Source: a virus (Duplodnaviria > Heunggongvirae > Uroviricota > Caudoviricetes). Taken from it: DNA of 37,388 nucleotides. Location: the IMG/VR virus record IMGVR_UViG_2778261448_000003; one strand, given 5' to 3'. The notes under the pieces are model-generated. The model had not been told where the DNA came from and did no database searches. It saw nothing but the letters and a program-made list of their open reading frames with translations. Of the stretch, positions 8,281-36,865 are shown one piece after another. The number at the start of each line of letters is the position of its first letter. Position 1 is the first letter of the stretch. Both the position numbers and the translations under genes were made by a program.

Positions 8281-8616
8281 TCAGGCGTGGCTGATGGCAC
8301 TTCCCACAAACGCGTTGGCTTTTTTCACTGCATCCACCGAATCCGGCCAGACCAGCGATTCGGTGGCAAACGTACCGCTTTTGTAGTACGTCAGTGTGGG
8401 CTCGGTCCCGGCCAGCGCCAGTACCAGCACCCCCACAGCCGTTCCGGCTTTCTGACCATCCCATGCCACCAGTTTTCCGCTGGCGTCATCCAGCATCAGT
8501 GGCGTCAGTGAAGGCGTGGCAACACTGATACCACTGGTACCTGTTGCGGTATACACCGGATCGCTTCCGGCAAAAATGCGCCTGTCCGCGCGCTTTTCTG
8601 TGGTGGTTTTAATCAT
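8281..8616 (-). CDS. D: Head decoration protein D
   Basis: 111 aa; TPLMLD, KLVAWDG and YYKSGTF motifs as in lambda gpD. Confidence 0.85.
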   Translation of the reverse strand: MIKTTTEKRADRRIFAGSDPVYTATGTSGISVATPSLTPLMLDDASGKLVAWDGQKAGTAVGVLVLALAGTEPTLTYYKSGTFATESLVWPDSVDAVKKANAFVGSAISHA

Positions 8617-8653: not shown

Positions 8654-10270
8654 TTACGGCATACTCATCAGCAGATCTTCTTCTCCGTGTCCGGCAGTTC
8701 CGCCTCCGGAAACCGCACTGGCAGCATGCTGTGCCATAAAGCGATCAAAAAGTGTTTCCTGTGACGGTTGCGATGCCGCCGGTGCGGCTGCCAGCAACGT
8801 TTTCGCCTGCGCCACCGTCATTCCCGGTTGTTCTGCCAGTGCCTGTGCAAGTTGCTTGCGCCCTTTCGCCTCCGGCAGCGCCATAATCTGATCGCCGACA
8901 CTTGCAGAACCGGCAACCGGTGCCGCCGCCAGTAACGTTTTTGCCTGGTCAACGGTCATTCCCGGCTGTTCAGCCAGCGCCTGCGCGAGTTGTTCACGCC
9001 CTTTAGCTTCCGGCAACGCCATAATCTGATCGCCTGTGCCTGCAGCACTGGCAGCAGGGGCTGCCGCCAGAAACGCTTTCGCCTGCTCCACCGTCATCCC
9101 AGGTTGACCTGCCAGCATCTGTGCCAGTTGCTCACGCCCCTTTGCTTCCGGCAGCGCCATAATCTGATCACCCGTGCTGTCAGTACCGGCAACCGGCGCA
9201 GCTGCAAGCAACGTTTTCGCCTGCTCAACCGTCATTCCAGGCTGACCTGCCAGCATTTGCGCCAGTTGCTCGCGCCCTTTCGCCTCCTGACAATTCAGGA
9301 TCCCCATCACGCGCTGATTTTCCTGGGCCACCGCTTCAGCAACGGTGAGATTTTTAACAGTCATTGCATTCTCCTTCGTAACAGAGTCATTCAGTGCAGA
9401 AACCATCACTTCAACGGCATCTGCAGCATTAATCAGTTGATCAGCCAGACCTGCATCAATGCCTGCCTGACCGTCATAAACGGCAGCCTCGGTATTCATC
9501 ACCGCCTCTGAACTCAGCCCCGTATAAAGCGCCACCTTGTCGACAAACATCCGGCGGGCCTCATCAATACGGCGCTGAAAATCTGCACGCACACCTGCCG
9601 GCAATGCCTGAATACTGTTGCCGTCAACCTTGTGCCGCCCGGAGTAAATCAGCGTGATGTCCACCCCTTCCTGTGCCAGTTGTTTCTCGTAACTGGTGTG
9701 CGCCATCATCACACCAATCGAACCAATTTTTGCCGTCTGCGTGACCAGCCGACGCGTACAGGCTGCCGCCAGCAACATGGCGGCTGAACAGGCCATGTCA
9801 TTGCACAGCGCCCACACGGGCTTCTGTTCCCGCAGGCGGTAAATCATGTCAGCACAGTCAAACGCCCCGGCAGCCTGACCGCCCGGGCTGTCGATATCCA
9901 GCAAAATGCCGCGCACATCCGGATCATTCACCGCCATCTGAAGACGGGCTGTCAGGCCGTCATAACCTGTCATGCCGGAGTAAGGGCGCAGGGTACCCAG
10001 TTTATGCACCAGCGTGCCGCTCACCGGCAGAATGGCGATGCCATTCTTCACCTGGTAACTCTTTGCCGGACGCTGACCACCCGCCATATAGTCAGTCACA
10101 GCCAGTTGCATACCATCAGCATCAAGCTGAACAGCCTGCTGAGGAACAGCAAGGCTGCCGGCCCCTATCTCCTTACCCAGCGCGCAAAAGAAAACCCGCG
10201 CATAGGCGGGTTCCAGTAAAAGCGGCTCATTAAATGCCATGGCGGCAATATGCGATAAATTACGACGCAT
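8654..10270 (-). CDS. C: Head maturation protease C (S49/ClpP-like) with in-frame scaffold (Nu3-like) C-terminal region containing four tandem ~45-aa repeats
   Basis: N-terminus NLSHIAAMAFNEPLLLEPAYARVFFCAL and VWALCNDMACSAA, SIGVMMAH, ILNCQEA motifs as in lambda gpC; repeat unit LPEAKGREQLAQ(M/A)LA(G/E)QPGMTV(E/D/A)QAK...GDQIMA seen four times. Confidence 0.9.
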   Translation of the reverse strand: MRRNLSHIAAMAFNEPLLLEPAYARVFFCALGKEIGAGSLAVPQQAVQLDADGMQLAVTDYMAGGQRPAKSYQVKNGIAILPVSGTLVHKLGTLRPYSGMTGYDGLTARLQMAVNDPDVRGILLDIDSPGGQAAGAFDCADMIYRLREQKPVWALCNDMACSAAMLLAAACTRRLVTQTAKIGSIGVMMAHTSYEKQLAQEGVDITLIYSGRHKVDGNSIQALPAGVRADFQRRIDEARRMFVDKVALYTGLSSEAVMNTEAAVYDGQAGIDAGLADQLINAADAVEVMVSALNDSVTKENAMTVKNLTVAEAVAQENQRVMGILNCQEAKGREQLAQMLAGQPGMTVEQAKTLLAAAPVAGTDSTGDQIMALPEAKGREQLAQMLAGQPGMTVEQAKAFLAAAPAASAAGTGDQIMALPEAKGREQLAQALAEQPGMTVDQAKTLLAAAPVAGSASVGDQIMALPEAKGRKQLAQALAEQPGMTVAQAKTLLAAAPAASQPSQETLFDRFMAQHAASAVSGGGTAGHGEEDLLMSMP

Positions 10271-11831
10271 CGCCTTTTCCTCCCGTTGTCTGTCGGATCT
10301 GCTGCTGAAACGTATCCTTTATCCAGATGGGGCGGGGAAGACCGGCAGCCTGTCGCTCCTGGCTTTCACGCAGTTGCTGGCGGAAAATCTCCTGATAGTC
10401 ATCTCCCATCAGGGCCAGCTCCTTCTCGTATGTACTCAGGCCACCTTCAATACGCATCACCGCCTCCTGCACCTCCTTAAGGCCATCAATCGCCATGCGG
10501 CCGGCACCAATCCACTCGGCACGACACCACCCGGAACGGGCCTCCCAGAATGAGAAACGGGATTTCGGCGGGCGGATCACACCGCGAATAAGGGCTTCCT
10601 CCAGCCAGCAGGCAAACATCTGTGACGCCAGTCGGCTGGCCACAAATTTTCGTTTCCCCATAAAATACCGCCACGACTCATTGGCGGATGCCCTGGCACT
10701 GGAATAACTGACCTGTGAATAATCACGGGAAAGCTGCTCATAGGACATGCCCAGCCCGGCAGCAATGTAACGTAACAGCGCCTTTTCCAGTTCAGAGAAA
10801 CCATTATCCGCATTCTGTGCTGTCTGCAGATTCAGTGAATCCCCCGGATAAAGATGCGGAATACGAACCCCACCCATCTTTACCGTATTGGTGGCGTAAT
10901 AGCGCGCATAGCCTTTCATGATGGTGTTCAGGGGATTTTTACCGCCATTTCCCACCCCGGCGATATATTCAAATGCTTTTTCCGAATCCAGTGTGGATTC
11001 AATCGTCGCGGCATACATCGCCCGCACCACCGCCGACTGCAGTTGCGTGGCCTGCAGTGTGTCGAGCATCTTGAGGCGCTCCATCACGGAATAAAACTGG
11101 TTGGCCCCGCGCGTCTGTCCGTCCTCCTGTGGCTGAAACACATGGATCATTCCCGGCCGCCCGGAGGGCAGCGTCGCCGCAATCCGTGTCCAGTTACTGA
11201 CACCGTAGCCAGGCCAGTCATCGTTCTGAACATGATAAGCCATCGCCTTTCCGTAACGGTTGATTTCCACTCCGGCACGCATAAAACGATCGCCGATGCC
11301 ATAACCGGGCGTGCTGACGCGCTTCGGACTGATGGTCTTGAATTTTGTTCTGAATAATGACGTGGATTCCGTATCCCATACGGGCTGGACAAAAATTTCA
11401 CCGTTAAACGTATGAACGCCCACCCCTTCACGAATAAATTCGGTAAACGAACGACGTCCCTCCACATCCATCGAACCAAACACAGGATCGCAATATTCCA
11501 TCCACGCCGCCTCCACATCTTCAATAAAGGCATGCGAATCAGCTTCCGACATCCCCAGCCAGCGCCAGTTGGGTCGATAGCTCAGGCGAAACATGTGGCC
11601 AACGATATGGTCTTTATGAATTTCCACAGCATTTGCGGCAATACCGTTGTTACGGACCAGATCATCCGCGCGGGCGTTACCCAGATGAATGGAAGGTAAG
11701 AGCGCCACGTCGGCACTTTCCGGTGCAGGCAGCCATTCTGCCATTTGCCCACCGAACCCGGAACCACCACCAGAATATCCCATGCTTTGCCGTAAAGGCT
11801 GCCCATGAATATCCACCAGTTCCCCGTTCAC
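10260..11831 (-). CDS. B: Portal protein B
   Basis: GYSGGGSGFGG, GNARADDLVRNNG, HVFQPQEDGQTRGANQFYSVMERLKMLDTLQ, LLRYIAAGLGMSYEQLSR match lambda gpB. Confidence 0.9.
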   Translation of the reverse strand: MNGELVDIHGQPLRQSMGYSGGGSGFGGQMAEWLPAPESADVALLPSIHLGNARADDLVRNNGIAANAVEIHKDHIVGHMFRLSYRPNWRWLGMSEADSHAFIEDVEAAWMEYCDPVFGSMDVEGRRSFTEFIREGVGVHTFNGEIFVQPVWDTESTSLFRTKFKTISPKRVSTPGYGIGDRFMRAGVEINRYGKAMAYHVQNDDWPGYGVSNWTRIAATLPSGRPGMIHVFQPQEDGQTRGANQFYSVMERLKMLDTLQATQLQSAVVRAMYAATIESTLDSEKAFEYIAGVGNGGKNPLNTIMKGYARYYATNTVKMGGVRIPHLYPGDSLNLQTAQNADNGFSELEKALLRYIAAGLGMSYEQLSRDYSQVSYSSARASANESWRYFMGKRKFVASRLASQMFACWLEEALIRGVIRPPKSRFSFWEARSGWCRAEWIGAGRMAIDGLKEVQEAVMRIEGGLSTYEKELALMGDDYQEIFRQQLRESQERQAAGLPRPIWIKDTFQQQIRQTTGGKGDAS

Positions 11832-18300: not shown

Positions 18301-19637
18301 ATAAGCGCTGACTTAAGGGTTGTGGTATTACGCCTGATATGATTTAACGTGCCGATGAATTACTCTCACGATAACTGGTCAGCAATTCTGGCCCATATTG
18401 GTAAGCCCGAAGAACTGGATACTTCGGCACGTAATGCCGGGGCTCTAACCCGCCGCCGCGAAATTCGTGATGCTGCAACTCTGCTACGTCTGGGGCTGGC
18501 TTACGGCCCCGGGGGGATGTCATTACGTGAAGTCACTGCATGGGCTCAGATCCATGACGTTGCAACATTATCTGACGTGGCTCTCCTGAAGCGGCTGCGG
18601 AATGCCGCCGACTGGTTTGGCATACTTGCCGCACAAACACTTGCTGTACGCGCCGCAGTTACGGGTTGTACAAGCGGAAAGAGATTGCGTCTTGTCGATG
18701 GAACAGCAATCAGTGCGCCCGGGGGCGGCAGCGCTGAATGGCGACTACATATGGGATATGATCCTCATACCTGTCAGTTCACTGATTTTGAGCTAACCGA
18801 CAGCAGAGACGCTGAACGGCTGGACCGATTTGCGCAAACGGCAGACGAGATACGCATTGCTGACCGGGGATTCGGTTCGCGTCCCGAATGTATCCGCTCA
18901 CTTGCTTTTGGAGAAGCTGATTATATCGTCCGGGTTCACTGGCGAGGATTGCGCTGGTTAACTGCAGAAGGAATGCGCTTTGACATGATGGGTTTTCTGC
19001 GCGGGCTGGATTGCGGTAAGAACGGTGAAACCACTGTAATGATAGGCAATTCAGGTAATAAAAAAGCCGGAGCTCCCTTTCCGGCACGTCTCATTGCCGT
19101 ATCACTTCCTCCCGAAAAAGCATTAATCAGTAAAACCCGACTGCTCAGCGAGAATCGTCGAAAAGGACGAGTAGTTCAGGCGGAAACGCTGGAAGCAGCG
19201 GGCCATGTGCTATTGCTAACATCATTACCGGAAGATGAATATTCAGCAGAGCAAGTGGCTGATTGTTACCGTCTGCGATGGCAAATTGAACTGGCTTTTA
19301 AGCGGCTCAAAAGTTTGCTGCACCTGGATGCTTTGCGTGCAAAGGAACCTGAACTCGCGAAAGCGTGGATATTTGCTAATCTACTCGCCGCATTTTTAAT
19401 TGACGACATAATCCAGCCATCGCTGGATTTCCCCCCCAGAAGTGCCGGATCCGAAAAGAAGAACTAACTCGTTGTGGAGAATAACAAAAATGGTCATCTG
19501 GAGCTTACAGGTGGCCATTCGTGGGACAGTATCCCTGACAGCCTACAAAACGCAATTGAAGAACGCGAGGCATCGTCTTAACGAGGCACCGAGGCGTCGC
19601 ATTCTTCAGATGGTTCAACCCTTAAGTTAGCGCTTAT
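18301..19637 (+). mobile_element. IS186 (IS4 family) insertion sequence, complete, with ~23-bp terminal inverted repeats and a ~13-bp target-site duplication GGGACTCGAACCC
   Basis: Ends CATAAGCGCTGACTTAAGGGTTG ... CAACCCTTAAGTTAGCGCTTATG; identical flanking GGGACTCGAACCC at 18288-18300 and 19638-19650; internal transposase ORF. Confidence 0.9.
18349..19467 (+). CDS. insL: IS186 transposase (DDE, IS4 family)
   Basis: 372 aa ORF MPMNYSHDNWSAILAHIGKPEELDTSARNAGALTRRREIRD... recognised as the IS186 transposase. Confidence 0.9.
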   Translation: MPMNYSHDNWSAILAHIGKPEELDTSARNAGALTRRREIRDAATLLRLGLAYGPGGMSLREVTAWAQIHDVATLSDVALLKRLRNAADWFGILAAQTLAVRAAVTGCTSGKRLRLVDGTAISAPGGGSAEWRLHMGYDPHTCQFTDFELTDSRDAERLDRFAQTADEIRIADRGFGSRPECIRSLAFGEADYIVRVHWRGLRWLTAEGMRFDMMGFLRGLDCGKNGETTVMIGNSGNKKAGAPFPARLIAVSLPPEKALISKTRLLSENRRKGRVVQAETLEAAGHVLLLTSLPEDEYSAEQVADCYRLRWQIELAFKRLKSLLHLDALRAKEPELAKAWIFANLLAAFLIDDIIQPSLDFPPRSAGSEKKN

Positions 19638-20351: not shown

Positions 20352-20426
<75 letters not shown>

Positions 20427-20429
20427 ATA

Positions 20430-20505
<76 letters not shown>

Positions 20506-20507
20506 AC

Positions 20508-20584
20508 TGGACCGCCACCGAGGACTCGAACCTCGCACACTCAACTTAAAGGGTTAACACTCTTTCTTGGTGAACTGGTGGCGG
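20508..20584 (-). tRNA. Atypical tRNA-like gene X (isotype uncertain; possible UUU anticodon with C33)
   Basis: CCGCCAC...CGAGG-TTCGAGT-CCTCG-GTGGCGG-T-CCA: perfect acceptor and T-arm, but D-loop lacks GG and anticodon loop is CCTTTAA; paralogous to tRNA-like Y. Confidence 0.45.
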
Positions 20585-20585
20585 T

Positions 20586-20661
20586 TGGTGGCCCTTGCTG
20601 GATTCGAACCAGCGACCTGGCGATTATGAGTCGCTCGCTCTCACCACTGAGCTAAAGGGCC
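20586..20661 (-). tRNA. tRNA-Ile2-like (anticodon CAU, ileX/ileZ type)
   Basis: GGCCCTTTAGCTCAGTGGTGAGAGCGAGCGACTCATAATCGCCAGGTCGCTGGTTCGAATCCAGCAAGGGCCACCA; closer to E. coli ileX than to elongator Met. Confidence 0.75.
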
Positions 20662-20687: not shown

Positions 20688-21401
20688 TCAAAAATCAAGC
20701 CCTTGCATAGATACATATCTGTCTGGCGGGAAGCCATAATAGCGGTGAAATACAGAGATAAAGTAGGATCTACTTGAATAACCGCATTTTTCTGCTACAG
20801 CCTGTCCATATCCATGCCGGGAGCATAACATATTTACAGCAACCCGCATCCGTTCCTCAAGTAACAAATTACTGAACCTGAGACCTTCATCCTTGAGTTT
20901 TTTCTTTAACAAGCTCTCACTCATATGCAACTGTAGAGCAATCGCACCAAGCGTCCAGCTTGCTGATATATCTGTTTGAATTATCGCTCTGACTTTGGCA
21001 CTTATACTGGATAAACATCCACTTAAAAATAATAACATCCGTTCATCTGATTCAAACAACGACAGGCAGGCCATCATAAGAAACATGTCCGTGGTCTCTC
21101 CGGAAAGTCTCTGGCTGGTAATTAAAGCCACAGCCAACGCAGGATTGTTGGGTTCCTGCGACAAGTAAAGCGGAATGTCAGTCAGAGGAGTTCTTGTCAG
21201 CTTATGCTGACTTTCCAGATATTGACTTACTATAGAATGGTTTATATCGACAATTTTAACTTTGCCATAATGCATAAGGAAAAGCTCCCTGATGCATTTG
21301 GTGGCCAAAACAACTGAGCCGGGCTTAAGTGACAACGTATCCTTTTCAAGAAAAATATTAATTGGGGAGCAAACCATGATAACTGAACAGACAACAGCCA
21401 T
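20688..21401 (-). CDS. AraC/XylS-family transcriptional regulator (AppY/PatE-like prophage regulator)
   Basis: C-terminal dual-HTH AraC signature (LGAIALQLHMSESLLKKKLKDEGLRFSNLLLEERMRVAVNML...AEKCGYSSRSYFISVFHRYYGFPP); start ambiguous between 21401 and 21377. Confidence 0.75.
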   Translation of the reverse strand: MAVVCSVIMVCSPINIFLEKDTLSLKPGSVVLATKCIRELFLMHYGKVKIVDINHSIVSQYLESQHKLTRTPLTDIPLYLSQEPNNPALAVALITSQRLSGETTDMFLMMACLSLFESDERMLLFLSGCLSSISAKVRAIIQTDISASWTLGAIALQLHMSESLLKKKLKDEGLRFSNLLLEERMRVAVNMLCSRHGYGQAVAEKCGYSSRSYFISVFHRYYGFPPDRYVSMQGLDF

Positions 21402-21926: not shown

Positions 21927-22601
21927 TTACAGTGAAAATGCCGCCTTTTGTTTTGAACGTGTTCTCGTCACGAACAATAAAGCCTCACTATCCAGCCGAT
22001 GAAAAGTGTGTTTCATTGCAACCCAGTGACCAGTAAATGTTTTGGACCAGTTTTTAGTTGTCACTCCCGCCAGTAATGCCAGCTCCTGGTATTCATAACC
22101 TTCCCCACCAAAAAGTTCTGCTTTTACTGCCTGCGCCGCCAGCCAGATTAATTTTTTCAGGCGTTCCTGCGTTTTCCCTGCAATTTTTCTGGTACCGGAT
22201 TGAGTATTAAATTCATTCCACGCCCACTGTGTTATCGCGATCTGATATTCCCAACAAATACTCCCGCTGTAACACCACAACAACCAGGCTTTATGATGTT
22301 CTTCAAGAGACAGAACAGCCCGCCGCCACGATGATGTCGAAAACTCAACCGGACTGACCAGAGGAATTGACGTCCCCTTCGCCAGCGATTGCTTTCCCGG
22401 GATTGGTGGATTATCCCGCGTTATCATTTTTCCAGTCACTTCATCGCGGTACCGGATTTTTTTTCGCCTGTAACGCCCTGTATCGAACATGGCATTCTCT
22501 TGCCAGGCTTCAAGCTGACCTTTTGTTGCCCCACTCAAATCAGCGGTGGCGATAATGAGCTGCTCACGCACAAACTGTAAATACTGGTTATTCATGCGCA
22601 C
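21927..22601 (-). CDS. Putative late-gene antitermination protein Q
   Basis: 224 aa ORF at the Q position (after RusA, before a tR'-like terminator, tRNAs and lysis genes); N-terminus recalled as a prophage Q-family protein, not verified. Confidence 0.6.
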   Translation of the reverse strand: MRMNNQYLQFVREQLIIATADLSGATKGQLEAWQENAMFDTGRYRRKKIRYRDEVTGKMITRDNPPIPGKQSLAKGTSIPLVSPVEFSTSSWRRAVLSLEEHHKAWLLWCYSGSICWEYQIAITQWAWNEFNTQSGTRKIAGKTQERLKKLIWLAAQAVKAELFGGEGYEYQELALLAGVTTKNWSKTFTGHWVAMKHTFHRLDSEALLFVTRTRSKQKAAFSL

Positions 22602-25249: not shown

Positions 25250-27061
25250 ATGAAGCTACAGCAATTTAATATTAAAAATTACAAGTCGATAAAAGATGAA
25301 ATAGAAGTATATATCGATGATATAGTTGTGCTAATTGGTCCAAATAACTCTGGAAAGTCAACAATATTAGATGCGTATGAAAAGTTTGCATCTTTAGGAT
25401 CAGCAAAAGGCCTGACTGCTCATGATTTTTATAACTCAGATATATCTATACCAATTGAAATGTGCGGAATTTTCACTGATATCACTGATGATGATATTCG
25501 TACATTAGGGGGAGAGAAATGGTTTTATAAAGATGATGCTCTTGACAGAAGAAATATGGCAAGAAAGTATGGGGGAGATTGGGAGAAAAATAATACACCA
25601 TTGGAAAGCAAACTCTATTATTGTGTTAAATGGGTTTGGTCACATCCAGAAAAAGCAGCCCAAAAACAATCCTATGGCCTTGATGATGCCTCTGGCAAAC
25701 GCATATTTATTGATGGGGGCTCTGGGGGACTTGACACACTACTACAAAGCCGAGTTCCTCAACCAATAAGAATAAGCCCAGATAAATCCATGGATGAAAC
25801 TAAAAAAATTATCATAAGTTTCTTAAAGGAAGATGCAAAAGATGAGTTACTGAAAACAGGGGAAAGTAAAGCTGATATAATACAGAAAATACAAGAGTTG
25901 ACAGACACTCTTATGAAAGATTCCAAATCAAAAATCGATGATCTTCTACAGCAGGTCTCCAAATCATCATCATCTGTTTTTCCTGGGCTAGAACTGGAAT
26001 TAAACATACTTTCCAAGGATCCCGTAGATGCGGATGTTATGGTTTCAGAATCTAACCTTACAGTGAAAATGGATGGGATAAATAGCTCTCTTCTCGAGAA
26101 CCAAGGTCACGGTGTTCGCCGCTCCGTTTTATGGTCTGCTTTGCAAATTTTGACTCACGAATCTCATGCACGAGATAAAATAAAAAAAGCGAAAGGTAAG
26201 CCTATCTCTGTTGAGAAAAAACAATATATTTTATTGATTGATGAGCCTGAATCATTTCTTCACCCTCCTATAATTAGAAGTGCGAGGGACTCGCTTTATG
26301 ATTTTGCAGCAAACAATGATAACTGGCAGGTGATGGCTACAACACACTCCCCTGTATTCATAGACTTATCCAAGAAGCACACGACTATAATTAGGATAGA
26401 AAAAGACAAATCTCTAAATAAAACAATATCTACAGATGAACTATCTTTTTCTGAAGAGGAAAAAGATAATATGAAAATGATAAGATTATGTAACCCAATG
26501 GTTAATGAGTTTTTCTTTTACGACAATATAATATTAGTTGAAGGACCAACTGAAAAAATCGTCATTAACAAAATATGTGATATTGTCGGAGTTGATTATC
26601 ATATCATTGACTGTTTAGGAAAAGGGAATATAAAAACATTTGCTAAAATATTAAATCAATTTAACGTTGAGTATATAGCAGTACATGACTCCGACATTCC
26701 AAAATGCTTAAAGCAAGGAAGCGTTTCAGGTAATGGAGCATGGGGTTCAAATGTATCCATAATGAACGAATGCTCTAAAAGTAAAAAACCAATGGTATTT
26801 ATTCAAATACCTCATTTCGAAGGACTGTTTTTTAAAAATTTCAATCCATCAAACAAAGTTGAAACAGTAACATCAGTTCTATCTAATAATTTAACACCAG
26901 AATACAAAGCAATATTTGATACATATAGCAGAATTTTAAACAAAGATCCTTCTGTTTTTATCAGCTCCAACGAAAAAATGATAGACATGTATCATGCATT
27001 TTATGCCAGTAATAAAAACCAAATTGAGACGCTAAAGAATCCTGAAATCTGGATCCTTTAA
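25250..27061 (+). CDS. OLD-family nuclease: N-terminal ABC-type ATPase fused to C-terminal Toprim domain (class-1, stand-alone)
   Basis: 603 aa; Walker A GPNNSGKST, Walker B/D-loop LLIDEPESFLHP, Toprim motifs LVEGPTE and HDSD; very AT-rich gene unlike the flanking prophage DNA. Confidence 0.8.
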   Translation: MKLQQFNIKNYKSIKDEIEVYIDDIVVLIGPNNSGKSTILDAYEKFASLGSAKGLTAHDFYNSDISIPIEMCGIFTDITDDDIRTLGGEKWFYKDDALDRRNMARKYGGDWEKNNTPLESKLYYCVKWVWSHPEKAAQKQSYGLDDASGKRIFIDGGSGGLDTLLQSRVPQPIRISPDKSMDETKKIIISFLKEDAKDELLKTGESKADIIQKIQELTDTLMKDSKSKIDDLLQQVSKSSSSVFPGLELELNILSKDPVDADVMVSESNLTVKMDGINSSLLENQGHGVRRSVLWSALQILTHESHARDKIKKAKGKPISVEKKQYILLIDEPESFLHPPIIRSARDSLYDFAANNDNWQVMATTHSPVFIDLSKKHTTIIRIEKDKSLNKTISTDELSFSEEEKDNMKMIRLCNPMVNEFFFYDNIILVEGPTEKIVINKICDIVGVDYHIIDCLGKGNIKTFAKILNQFNVEYIAVHDSDIPKCLKQGSVSGNGAWGSNVSIMNECSKSKKPMVFIQIPHFEGLFFKNFNPSNKVETVTSVLSNNLTPEYKAIFDTYSRILNKDPSVFISSNEKMIDMYHAFYASNKNQIETLKNPEIWIL

Positions 27062-27696: not shown

Positions 27697-28773
27697 TTAC
27701 CCCCTGAAGCCCGGTGGAATTTCGGTATCCGGTTCAGAAATATGATTCACACAACGCTGGTTGTTCGTGCCGCTTACCTGGAGCAACCAGGGGTTTTCAA
27801 AATTCCGGTCCGGTCCAAAAAACGTCGTCGCCCGCTGAACAAATTCCGTTCCCGTTTTCCCGGTAACCGCTAGGTATCTTGCGTAACGCCTCACGCCATC
27901 CAGCATTGCCTCTGGTGGCACCCCCTCGCGTAATCTGGCCTTCCAGGCACTGAAAGCGGATTTCTTCGGGTTTGCCCCGGCACGCAACGGGTACTCCCGC
28001 CAGACCTGTTCGAACACATCCGGATAATCCACTCGTCCCACAGACTGCCCGGTGTTTTCCGGGACTACCCGATCGGCTTCCCGCTGAATGGCGGAATCGG
28101 CTTCAGGCTGCTGCAGTTGGTGTGATTGCTCCGGCCTTGCGGTCATCACCTGCTGCACAGCGCCCGAATCGGCTTTCAGCGCATACGCTGAATCGGCTTC
28201 CGGTGTCGTGCCTGCTGGCTGACCAAGATTGACGGTCTGAACATCCCCTGCCTGGTTCGTGGCGTTTTTTACGCCATGGACCATAGTGTTTTGATCTTCT
28301 TGATCTGTATCTTTATCTGTATCTTTATCTGTCGTGACTCGTCGTGACATGTGCGTGACATTTCGTGACGCGCCGTGACAATCGCCATTTTGTTCCCGCT
28401 TTCTTTCCCTCTCTCGCTGCGCCCTCTTGCGCTCTGCAGGAGATTTTGCGGTTTGCGAAATATTGCCGTTGTCCTCTTTAAGCACCTGGCGTTTTTCCCA
28501 TCCAGTGATTAAATCACCATCAAGTACCCGCCCCTGCATCGTCTGCAAAATTGAATCAATTACCTCTTCTGTCACGTCGAGCGCACTTGCCAAATCTTCT
28601 GTCGTGACATCAATGTGACCTCGCGTGACATTTCGTGACGCGCTCACCAGGAGGTGGATATACACTGCCATCACTGTTGCAATTGGCTGCCCTGACACCC
28701 TGGCAATTGTTCGCCACTTAGGGTCATTTGGCATGTCATGCCATAATCTGAGCCAGGCGTTAGCCATACTCAC
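27697..28773 (-). CDS. Replication initiation/replisome organiser protein (lambda O-like role), with internal iterons
   Basis: 358 aa; conserved phage replication-protein C-terminal region (VWREYPLRAG...FSAWKARLREGVPPEAMLDGVRRYARYLAVTGKTGTEFVQRATTFFGP); two iteron clusters inside the ORF. Confidence 0.7.
   Translation of the reverse strand: MSMANAWLRLWHDMPNDPKWRTIARVSGQPIATVMAVYIHLLVSASRNVTRGHIDVTTEDLASALDVTEEVIDSILQTMQGRVLDGDLITGWEKRQVLKEDNGNISQTAKSPAERKRAQRERERKREQNGDCHGASRNVTHMSRRVTTDKDTDKDTDQEDQNTMVHGVKNATNQAGDVQTVNLGQPAGTTPEADSAYALKADSGAVQQVMTARPEQSHQLQQPEADSAIQREADRVVPENTGQSVGRVDYPDVFEQVWREYPLRAGANPKKSAFSAWKARLREGVPPEAMLDGVRRYARYLAVTGKTGTEFVQRATTFFGPDRNFENPWLLQVSGTNNQRCVNHISEPDTEIPPGFRG
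28300..28640. repeat. Putative origin of replication: two clusters of CGTGAC iterons (28331-28380, five copies at ~10-bp spacing; 28600-28640, four copies) plus a tandem TGTATCTTTATC repeat
   Basis: Direct repeats visible in sequence, inside the O-like gene as lambda ori lies inside O. Confidence 0.65.
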
Positions 28774-32975: not shown

Positions 32976-35447
32976 ATGAGTAAAGTCTTTATTTGCGCCG
33001 CCATTCCGGACGAACAGGCAATAAAGGAAGAAGGTGCAGTCGCTGTAGCTACTGCCATTGAAGCCGGTGATGAACGTCGCGCCCGCGCAAAATTTCACTG
33101 GCAATTCCTGGAACATTATCCGGCTGCTCAGGACTGCGCTTATAAATTTCTTGTCTGCGAGGATAAACCCGGTATACCCCGCCCTGCCCTCGATTCCTGG
33201 GATGCTGAATATATGCAGGAAAACCGCTGGGATGAGGAGTCTGCTTCCTTTGTCCCGGTTGAGACTGAATCAGATCCGATGAACGTCACTTTTGACAAGC
33301 TGGCCCCTGAAGTACAGAACGCTGTCATGGTTAAGTTCGACACATGTGAAAACATCACTGTTGATATGGTGATTAGCGCACAGGAATTGTTGCAGGAAGA
33401 CATGGCAACATTCGACGGCCATATCGTTGAAGCGTTGATGAAAATGCCAGAAGTAAACGCCATGTATCCGGAGCTTAAGCTGCATGCCATCGGGTGGGTT
33501 AAGCATAAATGTAAGCCTGGTGCCAAATGGCCCGAAATTCAGGCAGAGATGTGCATCTGGAAAAAACGTCGCGAAGGTGAACGCAAGGAAACCGGAAAAT
33601 ACACGTCTGTTGTTGATCTCGCCCGCGCCAGACCCAATCAACAGAACACTGAAAATTCAACAGGAAAAATCAACCCGGTCATTGCTGCCACTCATCGCGA
33701 ATACAAGCAGACATGGAAAACACTGGATGACGAACTGGCCTACGCTCTCTGGCCTGGTGATGTGGATGCCGGAAACATTGACGGCAGCATCCATCGCTGG
33801 GCAAAAAATGAAGTTATCGACAACGACCGCGAAGACTGGAAGCGTATCTCGGCATCAATGCGCAAACAGCCTGATGCCCTTCGCTACGACCGCCAGACTA
33901 TTTTTGGCCTTGTCCGTGAACGTCCGATCGACATTCACAAAGACCCTGTGGCACTGAACAAATACATTACTGAATACCTGACTACAAAGGGCGTGTTTGA
34001 AGATGAAGGAAGAAATCAGAGCGCAACTGATACTCTCTCGTCGCCAGTACCAGAAACTGATGCAGTGGAAACGGCAATTCCGGACAACGAAAAAACCGAA
34101 TGCAAAGTGGAAGTCGAACCATCTGTAGAGCGTGAGGGGCCGTTCTACTTCCTCTTCACCGACAAGAATGGCGAAAAATACGGTCGCGCAAACAAACTTT
34201 CTGGTCTGGATAAGGCGCTGGCTGCCGGGGCTACTGAAATCACGAAAGAAGAATATTTCGCCCGCAAAAACGGTACATACTCAGGTTCACAACAAAATAC
34301 TGGTGCATCTGACACGACCGCACAACCAGAGCCGGTAAAAGTTACCGCTGACGAAGTAAACAAAATTATGCAGGCAGCCAATATCAGCCGGCCTGACGCC
34401 GATGAACTGCTTGCAGTATCACGTGGTGAATTTGTTGCAGGGATTAGCGATCCGAATGATCCGAAATGGGTGAAGGGGATTGAAACCCGCGATTCTGTGA
34501 ACCAGAACCAGCAAGAAACGGAACAGAACGACCAGAAAGCGGAACAAAACAGCCCAAATGCGTTACAAAATGAGCCAGAAACGAAACAATCCGAACCAGT
34601 AGCGCAACAGGAACCGGAAAAAGTCTGCACCGCCTGCGGTCAGAGCGGTGGCGGCAACTGCCCTGATTGTGGCGCGGTGATGGGCGACGCAACATACCAG
34701 GAAACATTCGATGAAGAGAATCAGGTTGAAGTTCAGGAAAATGATCCGGAGGAAATGGAAGGCGCTGAACATCCACACAAGGAGAACCCTGGCGGCAATC
34801 AGCATCACGCCAGCGATAATAAAACTGGCGAGGCGACAGATCCCTTAATTAAGGTGAATGGTCATTATAAGCTCACATCCACCAGCAGAGCGGGGATTCA
34901 TCTGATGATCGACCTTGAAACAATGGGAAAAAATCCCGATGCCCCGATTATCTCAATAGGCGCAATATTTTTCGATCCACAAACCGGAGAGATGGGGCCG
35001 GAATTTAGCAAGACCATCGATCTGGATACGGCTGGCGGAGTCATTGATCGTGACGTCATTAAATGGTGGCTGAAGCAATCACGTGAAGCGCAGTCTGCCA
35101 TTATGACCGATGAAATCCCGTTAGATGATGCACTACTGCAATTGCGGGAATTTATCGACGAAAACTCCGGTGAATTTTTTGTTCAGGTCTGGGGTAATGG
35201 GGCCAACTTCGACAACGTGATTTTACGCCGTTCATACGAACGACAGGGTATCCCCTGCCCGTGGCGCTACTGCAACGATCGCGATGTACGCACAATCGTT
35301 GAGCTGGGGAAAGCCATAGACTTCGATGCCAGAACTGCTATCCCATTCGAAGGTGAGCGCCATAATGCACTTGATGACGCTCGTTACCAGGCAAAATACG
35401 TTTCAGCTATCTGGCAAAAACTGATCCCGAGTCAGGCTGATTTTTAA
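32976..35447 (+). CDS. RecE (exodeoxyribonuclease VIII)-like early protein with C-terminal DEDD-type 3'-5' exonuclease domain
   Basis: 823 aa; central LLAVSRGEFVAGISDPNDPKWVKGIETRD segment recalled from Rac RecE; C-terminal DLETMG...NGANFD...HNALDDARY is a DnaQ-like DEDDh signature; Cys4 motif CTACG...CPDCG. Confidence 0.6.
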   Translation: MSKVFICAAIPDEQAIKEEGAVAVATAIEAGDERRARAKFHWQFLEHYPAAQDCAYKFLVCEDKPGIPRPALDSWDAEYMQENRWDEESASFVPVETESDPMNVTFDKLAPEVQNAVMVKFDTCENITVDMVISAQELLQEDMATFDGHIVEALMKMPEVNAMYPELKLHAIGWVKHKCKPGAKWPEIQAEMCIWKKRREGERKETGKYTSVVDLARARPNQQNTENSTGKINPVIAATHREYKQTWKTLDDELAYALWPGDVDAGNIDGSIHRWAKNEVIDNDREDWKRISASMRKQPDALRYDRQTIFGLVRERPIDIHKDPVALNKYITEYLTTKGVFEDEGRNQSATDTLSSPVPETDAVETAIPDNEKTECKVEVEPSVEREGPFYFLFTDKNGEKYGRANKLSGLDKALAAGATEITKEEYFARKNGTYSGSQQNTGASDTTAQPEPVKVTADEVNKIMQAANISRPDADELLAVSRGEFVAGISDPNDPKWVKGIETRDSVNQNQQETEQNDQKAEQNSPNALQNEPETKQSEPVAQQEPEKVCTACGQSGGGNCPDCGAVMGDATYQETFDEENQVEVQENDPEEMEGAEHPHKENPGGNQHHASDNKTGEATDPLIKVNGHYKLTSTSRAGIHLMIDLETMGKNPDAPIISIGAIFFDPQTGEMGPEFSKTIDLDTAGGVIDRDVIKWWLKQSREAQSAIMTDEIPLDDALLQLREFIDENSGEFFVQVWGNGANFDNVILRRSYERQGIPCPWRYCNDRDVRTIVELGKAIDFDARTAIPFEGERHNALDDARYQAKYVSAIWQKLIPSQADF

Positions 35448-35508: not shown

Positions 35509-35778
35509 ATGAGCGAACAGTACCTGATAACGCTCGATGAGTGGAAGCCAAAACGGTTCAGTCTCCCAATAACAAACACTACCCTGGTGAAATACGGAAA
35601 ACTAGGATACATCGTTCCAAGACCACAAAAAATTCGTGGGCGTTGGCTGATAGATCGCCGGGCAGTATTTGTTGGACCTGGTGAAACGGGAATTGCGCCG
35701 GAAATTCATACTGGCGATGATGATGCACTGAAGGAGATTTTAACTCATGTCACCGAGGCCACGAAAAAACAGCACTGA
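35509..35778 (+). CDS. xis: Excisionase-like DNA-binding protein (Xis)
   Basis: Small basic protein immediately upstream of and overlapping int, in the lambda xis position. Confidence 0.6.
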   Translation: MSEQYLITLDEWKPKRFSLPITNTTLVKYGKLGYIVPRPQKIRGRWLIDRRAVFVGPGETGIAPEIHTGDDDALKEILTHVTEATKKQH

Positions 35779-36865
35779 CGTAACCGGTCTTTACGAAAAG
35801 TTTGATCGCAGAACTGGCAGGGTTTACTACCAGTATAAAAACCCTGTGACTGGAAAATTTCACGGTCTCGGAACAGACAAAGGCAAAGCAGAAAAAATCG
35901 CTTCCACAGCCAATCAGCGAATAGCTGCAGCAGAAGCTGAATATTTCATGCGCAAAATTGATGAAAGTCCGTCAGCAACAAAACGTCGGGGTATCAGATT
36001 AAAGGCATGGGTTGATCGATATCTGAAAATACAGGACGCGCGACTGAAAAATGGAGATATTGCAGCAACAACTCACAAAGAAAAAGCCCGAATGGCTGCA
36101 TACCTGGTTTCCCGTCTGGGAAACCACCCATTGAAAGAACTGGAAGTAAGAGACTTTGCATTAATACTGGATGAGTGGCTGGATAAAGACATGGTCAGCA
36201 CAGCGAGAGTAAATCGTGGATTATGGGTTGATATTTATAAAGAAGCACAGCATGCAGGGGAAGTTCCTCCTGGATGGAATCCTCCGGAGGCTACCCGTAA
36301 ACCGATCCCTAAAGTAACCAGAGCCAGACTCACCCTGGAGGACTGGCAAAAAATTTACAATTCAACACCAGAAAAACACTTTATCCGTAACGCAATGCTT
36401 CTTGCGATTGTTACTGGTCAGCGCCGTGATGACATTTGCCACATGCGTTTTTCAGATGTGTGGAACGAACACTTGCATATCACCCAGGGAAAAACCGGAA
36501 TGCGTCTGGCGTTACCGCTTACGCTACGCTGTGATGCCATTGGAATATCGCTAAAAGAAGTGATTGATGGATGCAAGGACAGAATATTGAGTCCATACCT
36601 GATTCATAGTCGGCACCAGAAACAACCAAAACCAATGAGTAAAGATAACCTGAGCGACTACTTTGCTAAAGCGCGGGATCTGGCAGGAATAACTCCACCA
36701 GCAGGAAAAACACCACCAACATTTCATGAACAACGCTCCCTGTCAGAACGACTGTACCGCGCACAGGGTATCGATACAAAAACATTACTGGGACATAAAG
36801 TCCAAGCAACCACCGATCGTTATAACGATACTCGTGGTCAGGAATGGGTTAAATTGGTTGTTTGA
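35747..36865 (+). CDS. int: Tyrosine integrase (lambda Int family)
   Basis: 372 aa; C-terminal catalytic region LAIVTGQRRDD...HEQRSLSERLY...LLGHK...TTDRYNDTRGQEW aligns with lambda Int R-H-R-Y active-site segments. Confidence 0.9.
   Translation: MSPRPRKNSTDVTGLYEKFDRRTGRVYYQYKNPVTGKFHGLGTDKGKAEKIASTANQRIAAAEAEYFMRKIDESPSATKRRGIRLKAWVDRYLKIQDARLKNGDIAATTHKEKARMAAYLVSRLGNHPLKELEVRDFALILDEWLDKDMVSTARVNRGLWVDIYKEAQHAGEVPPGWNPPEATRKPIPKVTRARLTLEDWQKIYNSTPEKHFIRNAMLLAIVTGQRRDDICHMRFSDVWNEHLHITQGKTGMRLALPLTLRCDAIGISLKEVIDGCKDRILSPYLIHSRHQKQPKPMSKDNLSDYFAKARDLAGITPPAGKTPPTFHEQRSLSERLYRAQGIDTKTLLGHKVQATTDRYNDTRGQEWVKLVV

Follow-up and report, generated by a model that had tools for sequence, protein, structure and literature searches.

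A lambda C/Nu3-type head protease/scaffold gene in an Escherichia coli prophage carries four 46-residue tandem units, and near-identical prophages carry two to five

The window analysed here, the whole 37,388-nucleotide (nt) stretch of DNA in IMG/VR record IMGVR_UViG_2778261448_000003, is a lambdoid (lambda-like) prophage of Escherichia coli, and our subject is a tandem repeat in the scaffold part of its gpC-like head maturation protease gene (Table 1). Read in the minus-strand frame, the repeat consists of four head-to-tail, in-frame units at nt 9292-8741, each of exactly 138 bp or 46 amino acids (aa), with the consensus LPEAKGREQLAQMLAGQPGMTVEQAKTLLAAAPVAGxASTGDQIMA. Tandem Repeats Finder returned a single array (8779-9287, period 138, 3.7 copies, 80% matches, 0 indels, score 591), a second repeat search likewise gave a spacing of 138 nt, and identity at a lag of 138 was 73.7% over the array, compared with a mean of 37.3% for the best lag in 1000 codon shuffles (standard deviation 1.2, maximum 45.6) and with 28% at the same lag in the protease part of the gene. 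An earlier note, made from the letters of this DNA, had described four tandem repeats at 8700-9300; these are true tandem duplicates, and the consensus that it quoted is correct for the four units of the translation. Its term 'near-identical' holds only for the protein sequence of the 32-aa unit cores, which are 81-94% identical as protein but 77-82% as DNA; whole 46-aa units are only 63-83% identical as protein and 63-80% as DNA, and the period is longer than the ~135 bp or ~45 aa that it stated.

Table 1. Features of the head protease/scaffold gene and its neighbours (positions in the window)
Feature	Position	Strand	Basis
gpC-like head maturation protease/scaffold fusion gene, 538 aa	8654..10270	minus	Open reading frame; Pfam and phrog matches
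S49 (SppA-like) protease domain, aa 78-290	9401..10039	minus	TIGR00706 SppA_dom, aa 78-290; PF01343, aa 146-290
Shine-Dalgarno motif AAGGAG, 6 nt before internal ATG	9371..9376	minus	Sequence
Predicted nested in-frame scaffold protein (Nu3/gp6 homologue), 236 aa from M303, ATG 9364	8654..9364	minus	Shine-Dalgarno motif and ATG
Leading helix ENQRVMGILN, longer form of the (G)DQIMA(L) helix opening each later unit	9293..9322	minus	
Repeat unit 1, aa 327-372: CQEAKGREQLAQMLAGQPGMTVEQAKTLLAAAPVAGTDSTGDQIMA	9155..9292	minus	Unit hidden Markov model, 68.9 bits
Repeat unit 2, aa 373-418	9017..9154	minus	Unit hidden Markov model, 67.8 bits
Repeat unit 3, aa 419-464	8879..9016	minus	Unit hidden Markov model, 67.5 bits
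Repeat unit 4, aa 465-510; core intact, linker and last helix diverged (…AASQPSQETLFDR)	8741..8878	minus	Unit hidden Markov model, 62.1 bits
Non-repeated C-terminal tail FMAQHAASAVSGGGTAGHGEEDLLMSMP, common to lambda, phage 21 and Gifsy-1	8657..8740	minus	C-terminus alignment
Lambda-family portal gene, directly upstream	10260..11831	minus	PF05136, E=3e-95; TIGR01539 portal_lambda
gpD-like head decoration gene, directly downstream	8281..8616	minus	PF02924, E=3e-21
gpE-like major capsid protein gene, 342 aa	7183..8211	minus	PF03864, E=7e-65

The fourth unit closes with a degenerate copy of the first helix, ETLFDRFM in place of GDQIMA. Searches of Pfam and NCBIfam found no family that spans the unit, with sub-threshold, spurious matches only (Bac_DNA_binding, DUF732, T2SSK, Casein), and a PDB sequence search with the segment gave nothing significant and no structure. 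The best PDB sequence match, ribosomal protein bL12 (E=0.07), shares a G-x-x-x-x-E-A-K-x-L-x-x-A-P-like motif with the unit and was set aside as a chance match. Comparison with the solved helix-turn-helix coat-binding domain of P22-type scaffolds gave similarity neither of sequence nor of fold. A plus-strand open reading frame (ORF) that runs over the array (8990-9511) is open, with neither a family match nor other support; it was rejected, the codon-position conservation fitting the minus-strand frame.

The 538-aa protein matches Pfam PF01343 (Peptidase_S49; E=3e-33, 115 bits against a cutoff of 24.9) and phrog_53, 'head maturation protease' (E=7e-219), in agreement with the gpC-like assignment of the earlier note. 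The S49 peptidase occupies the N-terminal two thirds of the protein, and an N-D-M-x-C-S-A motif aligns with N161-S166 of lambda C; the serine that matches S166, which is reportedly the nucleophile of lambda C, is present. Compared with the proteins of sequenced phages, identity is 68% to phage 21 and its relatives, ~66% to Gifsy-1 and ~54% to lambda C (first ~370 residues). The genes follow one another in the order portal, protease/scaffold gene, gpD-like, gpE-like on one strand throughout, and by its S49 domain, its position and its Nu3-homologous C-terminal segment the gene fits the lambda C/Nu3-type class. In E. coli strain 503025 a gene 99.7% identical to it is set in a complete lambda-like head and tail module; RefSeq labels that gene 'S49 family peptidase' only and omits the nested scaffold gene.

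A Shine-Dalgarno motif and an in-frame ATG lie just upstream of the array. A GGAG-type motif stands 5-8 nt before the equivalent ATG in 8 of the 8 relatives examined, whereas the residues encoded at the motif vary among them (KENA, GGT, QENT, QEET, REVN, EDKN), so that it is apparently the signal that is conserved rather than the protein. Phage 21 gene 6 has an annotated ribosome-binding site at the equivalent place (GenBank M81255), with its start marked putative, and in-frame nested genes are annotated both in lambda C (nu3) and in phage 21 gene 5 (gene 6). From the conserved signal, together with these annotated nested genes, we infer a separate scaffold protein of 236 aa that begins at the internal start and holds the whole array. 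Four stretches of this predicted protein match phrog_8399, 'head scaffolding protein'.

Copies of the unit in related phages were counted with a hidden Markov model (HMM) built from the units. The model matched once in lambda C, three times in phage 21, PhiR12_1, Gifsy-1 and a Trabulsiella prophage, four times in the window and five times in E. coli STEC313. The earlier note had contrasted the array with a single copy in lambda; this is correct, but it is incomplete and overstated the novelty of the array, given the three copies in phage 21 (M81255) and Gifsy-1. In M81255, the GenBank entry for the phage 21 head operon (Smith and Feiss), the repeats of gene 6 are annotated as 'Tri1 box', 'Tri box' and 'Tri3 box', 'function unknown; putative'. 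These boxes, as annotated in GenBank, lie at 2471-2574, 2611-2721 and 2752-2865 (aa 324-358, 371-407 and 418-455) and coincide with the matches of the unit HMM in gp5 (aa 325-356, 375-406 and 422-453; 53-59 bits). By sequence, then, the window repeat is homologous to the Tri boxes and occupies the same place in the gene 6 part. The three copies implied by the name do not hold across the group: the window has four, and sister prophages have two to five. The repeat itself, annotated for phage 21 in 1993, has thus long been on record, and what the window contributes is a member with four units; a literature search that was thin on older subscription papers found no description of Tri boxes, Nu3 repeats or tandem repeats in lambdoid scaffolds.

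Phage 21 resembles the window in the gene order portal, 5/6, shp, 7, in the S49 protease and nested scaffold gene, and in the positions of the ribosome-binding site and the repeats. Its three units, by contrast, are spaced 50 and 47 aa apart with cores only 56-59% identical to one another, whereas the four window units are spaced at exactly 46 aa, have cores 81-94% identical and are each closest to phage 21 unit 1. The units of phage 21 and Gifsy-1 are positional orthologues (72%, 84% and 59% identity), with 50-62% identity within an array. Since all four window units are closest to unit 1, the array may have expanded independently from a unit-1-like copy or have been homogenised in the past. 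Gifsy-1 STM2605, a homologue of lambda gpC, and similar Salmonella prophage genes share the architecture, the 46-aa spacing and the conserved Shine-Dalgarno motif and ATG; STM2605 differs in its three diverged units and is ~66% identical to the window protein overall. Lambda C/Nu3 likewise has the S49 peptidase, the nested scaffold gene, the neighbours B, D and E, a homologous unit (ENSRIMGILNCEEAHGREEQARVLAETPGMTVKTARRILAAAP) and a homologous tail, in which ...DRLMQG...LLNTPV aligns with ...DRFMAQ...LLMSMP of the window. It differs in having one unit, which follows a long Ser/Thr/Ala-rich acidic stretch missing from the window gene, and in an annotated nu3 start that lies farther upstream and gives a product of 201 aa.

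The spread of the unit was examined with a profile of the four window units, which matched 217 of 1.84 billion representative proteins at E<=1e-3. Most were matched in one stretch and a few in two or three, and there was no credible protein with four or more units among them. The matches fall into two length classes: proteins 400-550 aa long in which the unit lies ~80 residues before the C-terminus and which fit protease-scaffold fusions, and proteins of 75-230 aa, which fit stand-alone scaffold-sized proteins or fragments. Two units occur in some Bradyrhizobium proteins, and three units also in very many E. coli and Salmonella prophages. Because most of the 217 proteins have a single unit, one copy is the ancestral and common state, and arrays of several copies are peculiar to the enterobacterial phage 21/Gifsy group. 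A search with the scaffold part returned mainly database entries named 'S49 family peptidase, partial' that are cut inside or beside the array; these served for the unit HMM but did not suit a clean census of copy number. The repeat clearly disrupts many short-read assemblies, so that copy counts taken from draft genomes would be unreliable. A scan of genome contigs gave 5 loci only.

A survey of copy number in relatives, which the earlier note had proposed, shows that it varies from 1 to 5. Of the best 79 IMG/VR loci, four units occur in 41, three in 37 and five in one, and two full-length genes with two units were found. In the window's own lineage, gene lengths of 446, 492, 538 and 584 aa correspond to 2, 3, 4 and 5 units, in steps of exactly 46 aa. 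One sublineage forms an allelic series, with two units in L061 and L062, three in L057, four in L039-L042 and five in L048; its members have the first and last units in common and hold 0, 1, 2 or 3 copies of a further, internal unit between these. These internal copies are 100% nucleotide-identical, and the 2.5-kb flanks on each side, which hold the portal, protease, decoration and capsid genes, are 99.0-99.7% identical, so that the differences in the series are best read, on the sequences compared, as recent gains or losses of units by unequal recombination or slippage between units. No change of the capsid gene accompanies the change in copy number in this series, and the gpE-like gene measures 1029 nt in relatives with 3, 4 or 5 units. 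The earlier suggestion that the repeat marks recombination stands only to this extent: sister prophages differ in copy number through unequal recombination or slippage between their units. This 2-to-5-copy polymorphism among near-identical prophages is what our analysis adds; no description of it was found in the literature searched, which leaves out most older subscription papers.

Complete genomes extend this picture. Colinearity across the full 767-nt scaffold region was seen in 49 of 60 sampled rows (107 matching records) from complete E. coli genomes; by this measure roughly 90 complete genomes would carry the four-unit array. An identical five-unit allele is found in nine complete E. coli genomes, all of them Shiga toxin-producing E. 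coli (STEC) isolates from China. The genome of STEC316 (NZ_CP041431.1) holds four- and five-unit alleles in two different prophages (2069698-2070464 and 4821372-4822226), and co-resident prophages are a plausible source of mosaic arrays. Up to 8 places matching the array were seen in STEC genomes. In strain A34 the four units are 95-98% nucleotide-identical to one another, apparently a sign of recent homogenisation or re-expansion.

The window's own array is old and under constraint. Nonsynonymous (dN) and synonymous (dS) divergence was estimated by the Nei-Gojobori method on the 32-codon core, and between the four units dN is 0.04-0.12, dS 0.6-1.45 and dN/dS 0.03-0.17. With synonymous sites near saturation, a recent duplication in the window is ruled out, and the expansion of the repeat is no fresh event, to judge both from this divergence and from the ~90 complete E. 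coli genomes estimated to share the same colinear array. Units also have near-identical orthologues, matched in position, in other prophages: nucleotide identity in the core is 99% between unit 1 and unit 1 of STEC313, 99% between unit 2 and its counterpart, unit 2, in OkiPb01676, and 98% between unit 3 and unit 4 of STEC313. Between units, codon positions 1, 2 and 3 are 95%, 93% and 53% identical in the core and 54%, 54% and 44% identical in the 13-codon linker. In comparisons of orthologous arrays (the window against N61 and A34) dN/dS is 0.14-0.18, and for the protease domain it is 0.10-0.13. These values indicate that selection on the amino-acid sequence maintains each of the units, and such constraint at the protein level argues against a role of the DNA or RNA and against a neutral spacer. 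The combination of high protein identity with near-saturated synonymous sites is not fully explained; very strong constraint is a possible cause, and other possible causes are a preferential survival of recombination-resistant arrays and unequal crossing-over among co-resident prophages, with diverged alleles contributing to the array.

An AlphaFold2 model of the 236-aa nested protein, computed from an alignment of 31 sequences, has a mean predicted local distance difference test score (pLDDT) of 71.6 and a predicted template modelling score (pTM) of 0.28. In the model each unit consists of a 6-8-residue helix (DQIMA), a one-turn EAK helix, an 8-residue helix (EQLAQMLA) and a 10-residue helix (VEQAKTLLAA), with pLDDT ~77-85 in the helices and lower values in the linkers. 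A leading helix is placed at residues 8-23 of the nested protein, and pLDDT falls below 50 at residues 216-235, the last 20 residues being disordered in the model. The low pTM points to no fixed arrangement between units, and the model fits units that would be strung like beads on a string. By analogy only, the array recalls tandem small three-helix-bundle modules, for example the domains of staphylococcal protein A, and also UBA/CUE domains.

Taken together, these results incline us, by a modest degree, to the view that each unit is a small, independent three-helix scaffold interaction module, and that the array is an expanded scaffold module within a gene pair of the lambda C/Nu3 type and changes by unequal recombination or slippage. 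On this proposal one reading frame would yield two proteins, the 538-aa S49 protease with a scaffold tail and the 236-aa scaffold made from the internal ribosome-binding site, both of them bearing the four 46-aa units. Each unit would fold by itself into the DQIMA, REQLAQxLA and TVEQAKxLLA helices, the units would be joined by flexible Ala/Gly/Pro-rich linkers, and a unit might make contact with the gpE-like capsid protein, with other scaffold chains, or with both. Lambda Nu3 is a scaffold for which Nu3-E, Nu3-Nu3, Nu3-C and Nu3-B interactions have been reported (PMC3224144). Extra units would then raise the valency and the bulk of the scaffold, and of the co-assembled protease, inside the procapsid. 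Copy number would shift in in-frame steps of 138 bp through unequal homologous recombination or replication slippage and give alleles of 2 to 5 units, and arrays with synonymous drift between units, like that of the window, would be more stable.

Several observations weigh against this proposal. The structural model is based on an alignment of 31 sequences and has only moderate confidence (pLDDT 71.6), and the binding partner of the unit is proposed by analogy with lambda Nu3. Prophages that are otherwise near-identical carry 2 to 5 units, so that copy number may matter little, which weakens the idea of valency tuning, and the capsid-binding determinant could be the non-repeated C-terminal tail instead. 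The phage collection contains no isolate with a close relative of the four-unit allele (the best has 68% identity and three units), so that function in viable phage has to be argued indirectly; from purifying selection and prevalence, the four- and five-unit alleles probably make viable phage.

On a rival reading, the array might be a tolerated spacer, a neutral, expandable linker between the protease/scaffold core and a tail that matters, with copy number drifting by frequent and harmless recombination. Alleles of 2, 3, 4 or 5 units within near-identical flanks and without compensating change in the capsid gene are what a spacer would produce, one unit suffices in lambda, and no fixed packing between units is predicted. 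We nevertheless think this unlikely, since dN/dS in the array, both between units and between orthologous arrays, is as low as in the protease domain, the true linkers inside the units are poorly conserved (~54% at codon positions 1 and 2), and most of the 217 matched proteins, fusions and stand-alone scaffold-sized proteins alike, retain the unit in one conserved copy.

An alternative that places the function in the linkers is that they offer the gpC-like protease several cleavage sites, so that scaffold and protease would be cut to ~5-kDa pieces that leave the procapsid before packaging. In lambda, Nu3 is reportedly degraded by C ahead of packaging (PMC3224144). The lambda portal reads ...REYA|GYHGGG at its annotated cleavage site and the window portal ...QSM|GYSGGG at the same place, and the unit linkers hold similar sites of a small residue followed by Gly (PVA-GTD, SAA-GTG, PVA-GSA). 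Such a motif is, however, low in information, it derives from a single known site and the resemblance is weak, and conservation within the unit is highest in the helical core and not in the linker. We consider this alternative rather improbable as the explanation of the array, and it could coexist with the interaction modules rather than replace them.

A role at the level of nucleic acid, with the 138-bp repeats serving as protein-binding sites, as a selected recombination hot spot or as messenger RNA structure that tunes the ratio of protease to scaffold, would draw on the position of the array just downstream of the internal start, where RNA structure could affect translation, and on the recombination between units that does occur; we judge it very improbable, given third codon positions 53% identical as against 93-95% at positions 1 and 2, and near-saturated synonymous sites. 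That the four copies arose by mis-assembly of a shorter array can practically be dismissed: although repeats often break short-read assemblies and many homologues are partial entries cut inside the array, the units differ at 18-23% of their nucleotides, enough for unambiguous placement, and the region is colinear in the complete genomes sampled (49 of 60 rows) as well as present in 41 IMG/VR contigs.

Other parts of the prophage also hold features of note. An 823-aa ORF at 32976-35447 (plus strand), with a C-terminal Rv2179c-like 3'-5' exoribonuclease domain, adjoins the integrase gene (35747-36865) and contains a second coding tandem repeat (34503-34589, period 21 nt, ~2-4 copies, rich in AGAAA/GGAA). 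Short tandem repeats with periods of 6, 12, 10 and 11 (TCTTTATCTGTA x2.9; GTCGTGACAC x4.9) lie at 28298-28380, within a 358-aa ORF without a Pfam match (27697-28773, minus strand); their position and form suggest, by analogy with lambda O, that they may be the iterons of a replication origin within the replication initiator gene. In the early/immunity region, transcribed opposite to its neighbours, a 603-aa ORF (25250-27061, plus strand) combines an AAA_15/AAA_21 ATPase with an OLD-like TOPRIM domain and so encodes an OLD-family nuclease, a type found in anti-phage defence.

Further features lie near the Q antiterminator gene (21927-22601). Three tRNA genes, Gly(tcc), Thr(tgt) and one with a CAT anticodon (Met according to ARAGORN), lie at 20352-20661 (minus strand), downstream of Q as in many Shiga toxin (Stx)-type lambdoid prophages; in the equivalent three-tRNA cluster of strain 503025, RefSeq gives tRNA-Ile at the first position. 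Between Q and the tRNA cluster is an ORF for a 237-aa AraC-family regulator (20688-21401, minus strand; HTH_AraC and HTH_18), at whose position strain 503025 has a Ser/Thr kinase, a PP2C phosphatase and a DNA methyltransferase, which marks a variable cargo slot. A 372-aa DDE_Tnp_1 transposase ORF (18349-19467, plus strand) represents an insertion sequence between the lysis/late region and the tRNA cluster; the prophage of strain 503025 has no insertion sequence at the equivalent place and has IS1203 elsewhere.

In practical terms, annotation pipelines give genes of this kind only the name 'S49 family peptidase' and miss the nested scaffold gene. A bolder view of the array, that it is a 'tuning knob' in which frequent in-frame gain and loss of modules is selected because it changes scaffold valency, is in our opinion a long shot. 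If it were true, procapsid nucleation, capsid size fidelity or protease loading would be altered, the phage's dealings with satellites, or with host defences, that sense or make use of head assembly could change, and the array would be a contingency-type locus inside a virion assembly gene. Contacts between the capsid shell and scaffolds of the lambda type (Nu3, and gpC through its scaffold tail) are still poorly defined, and a natural allelic series of 1, 2, 3, 4 and 5 copies of one 46-aa module, among near-identical head genes, offers a ready-made test of binding and valency in T=7 assembly.

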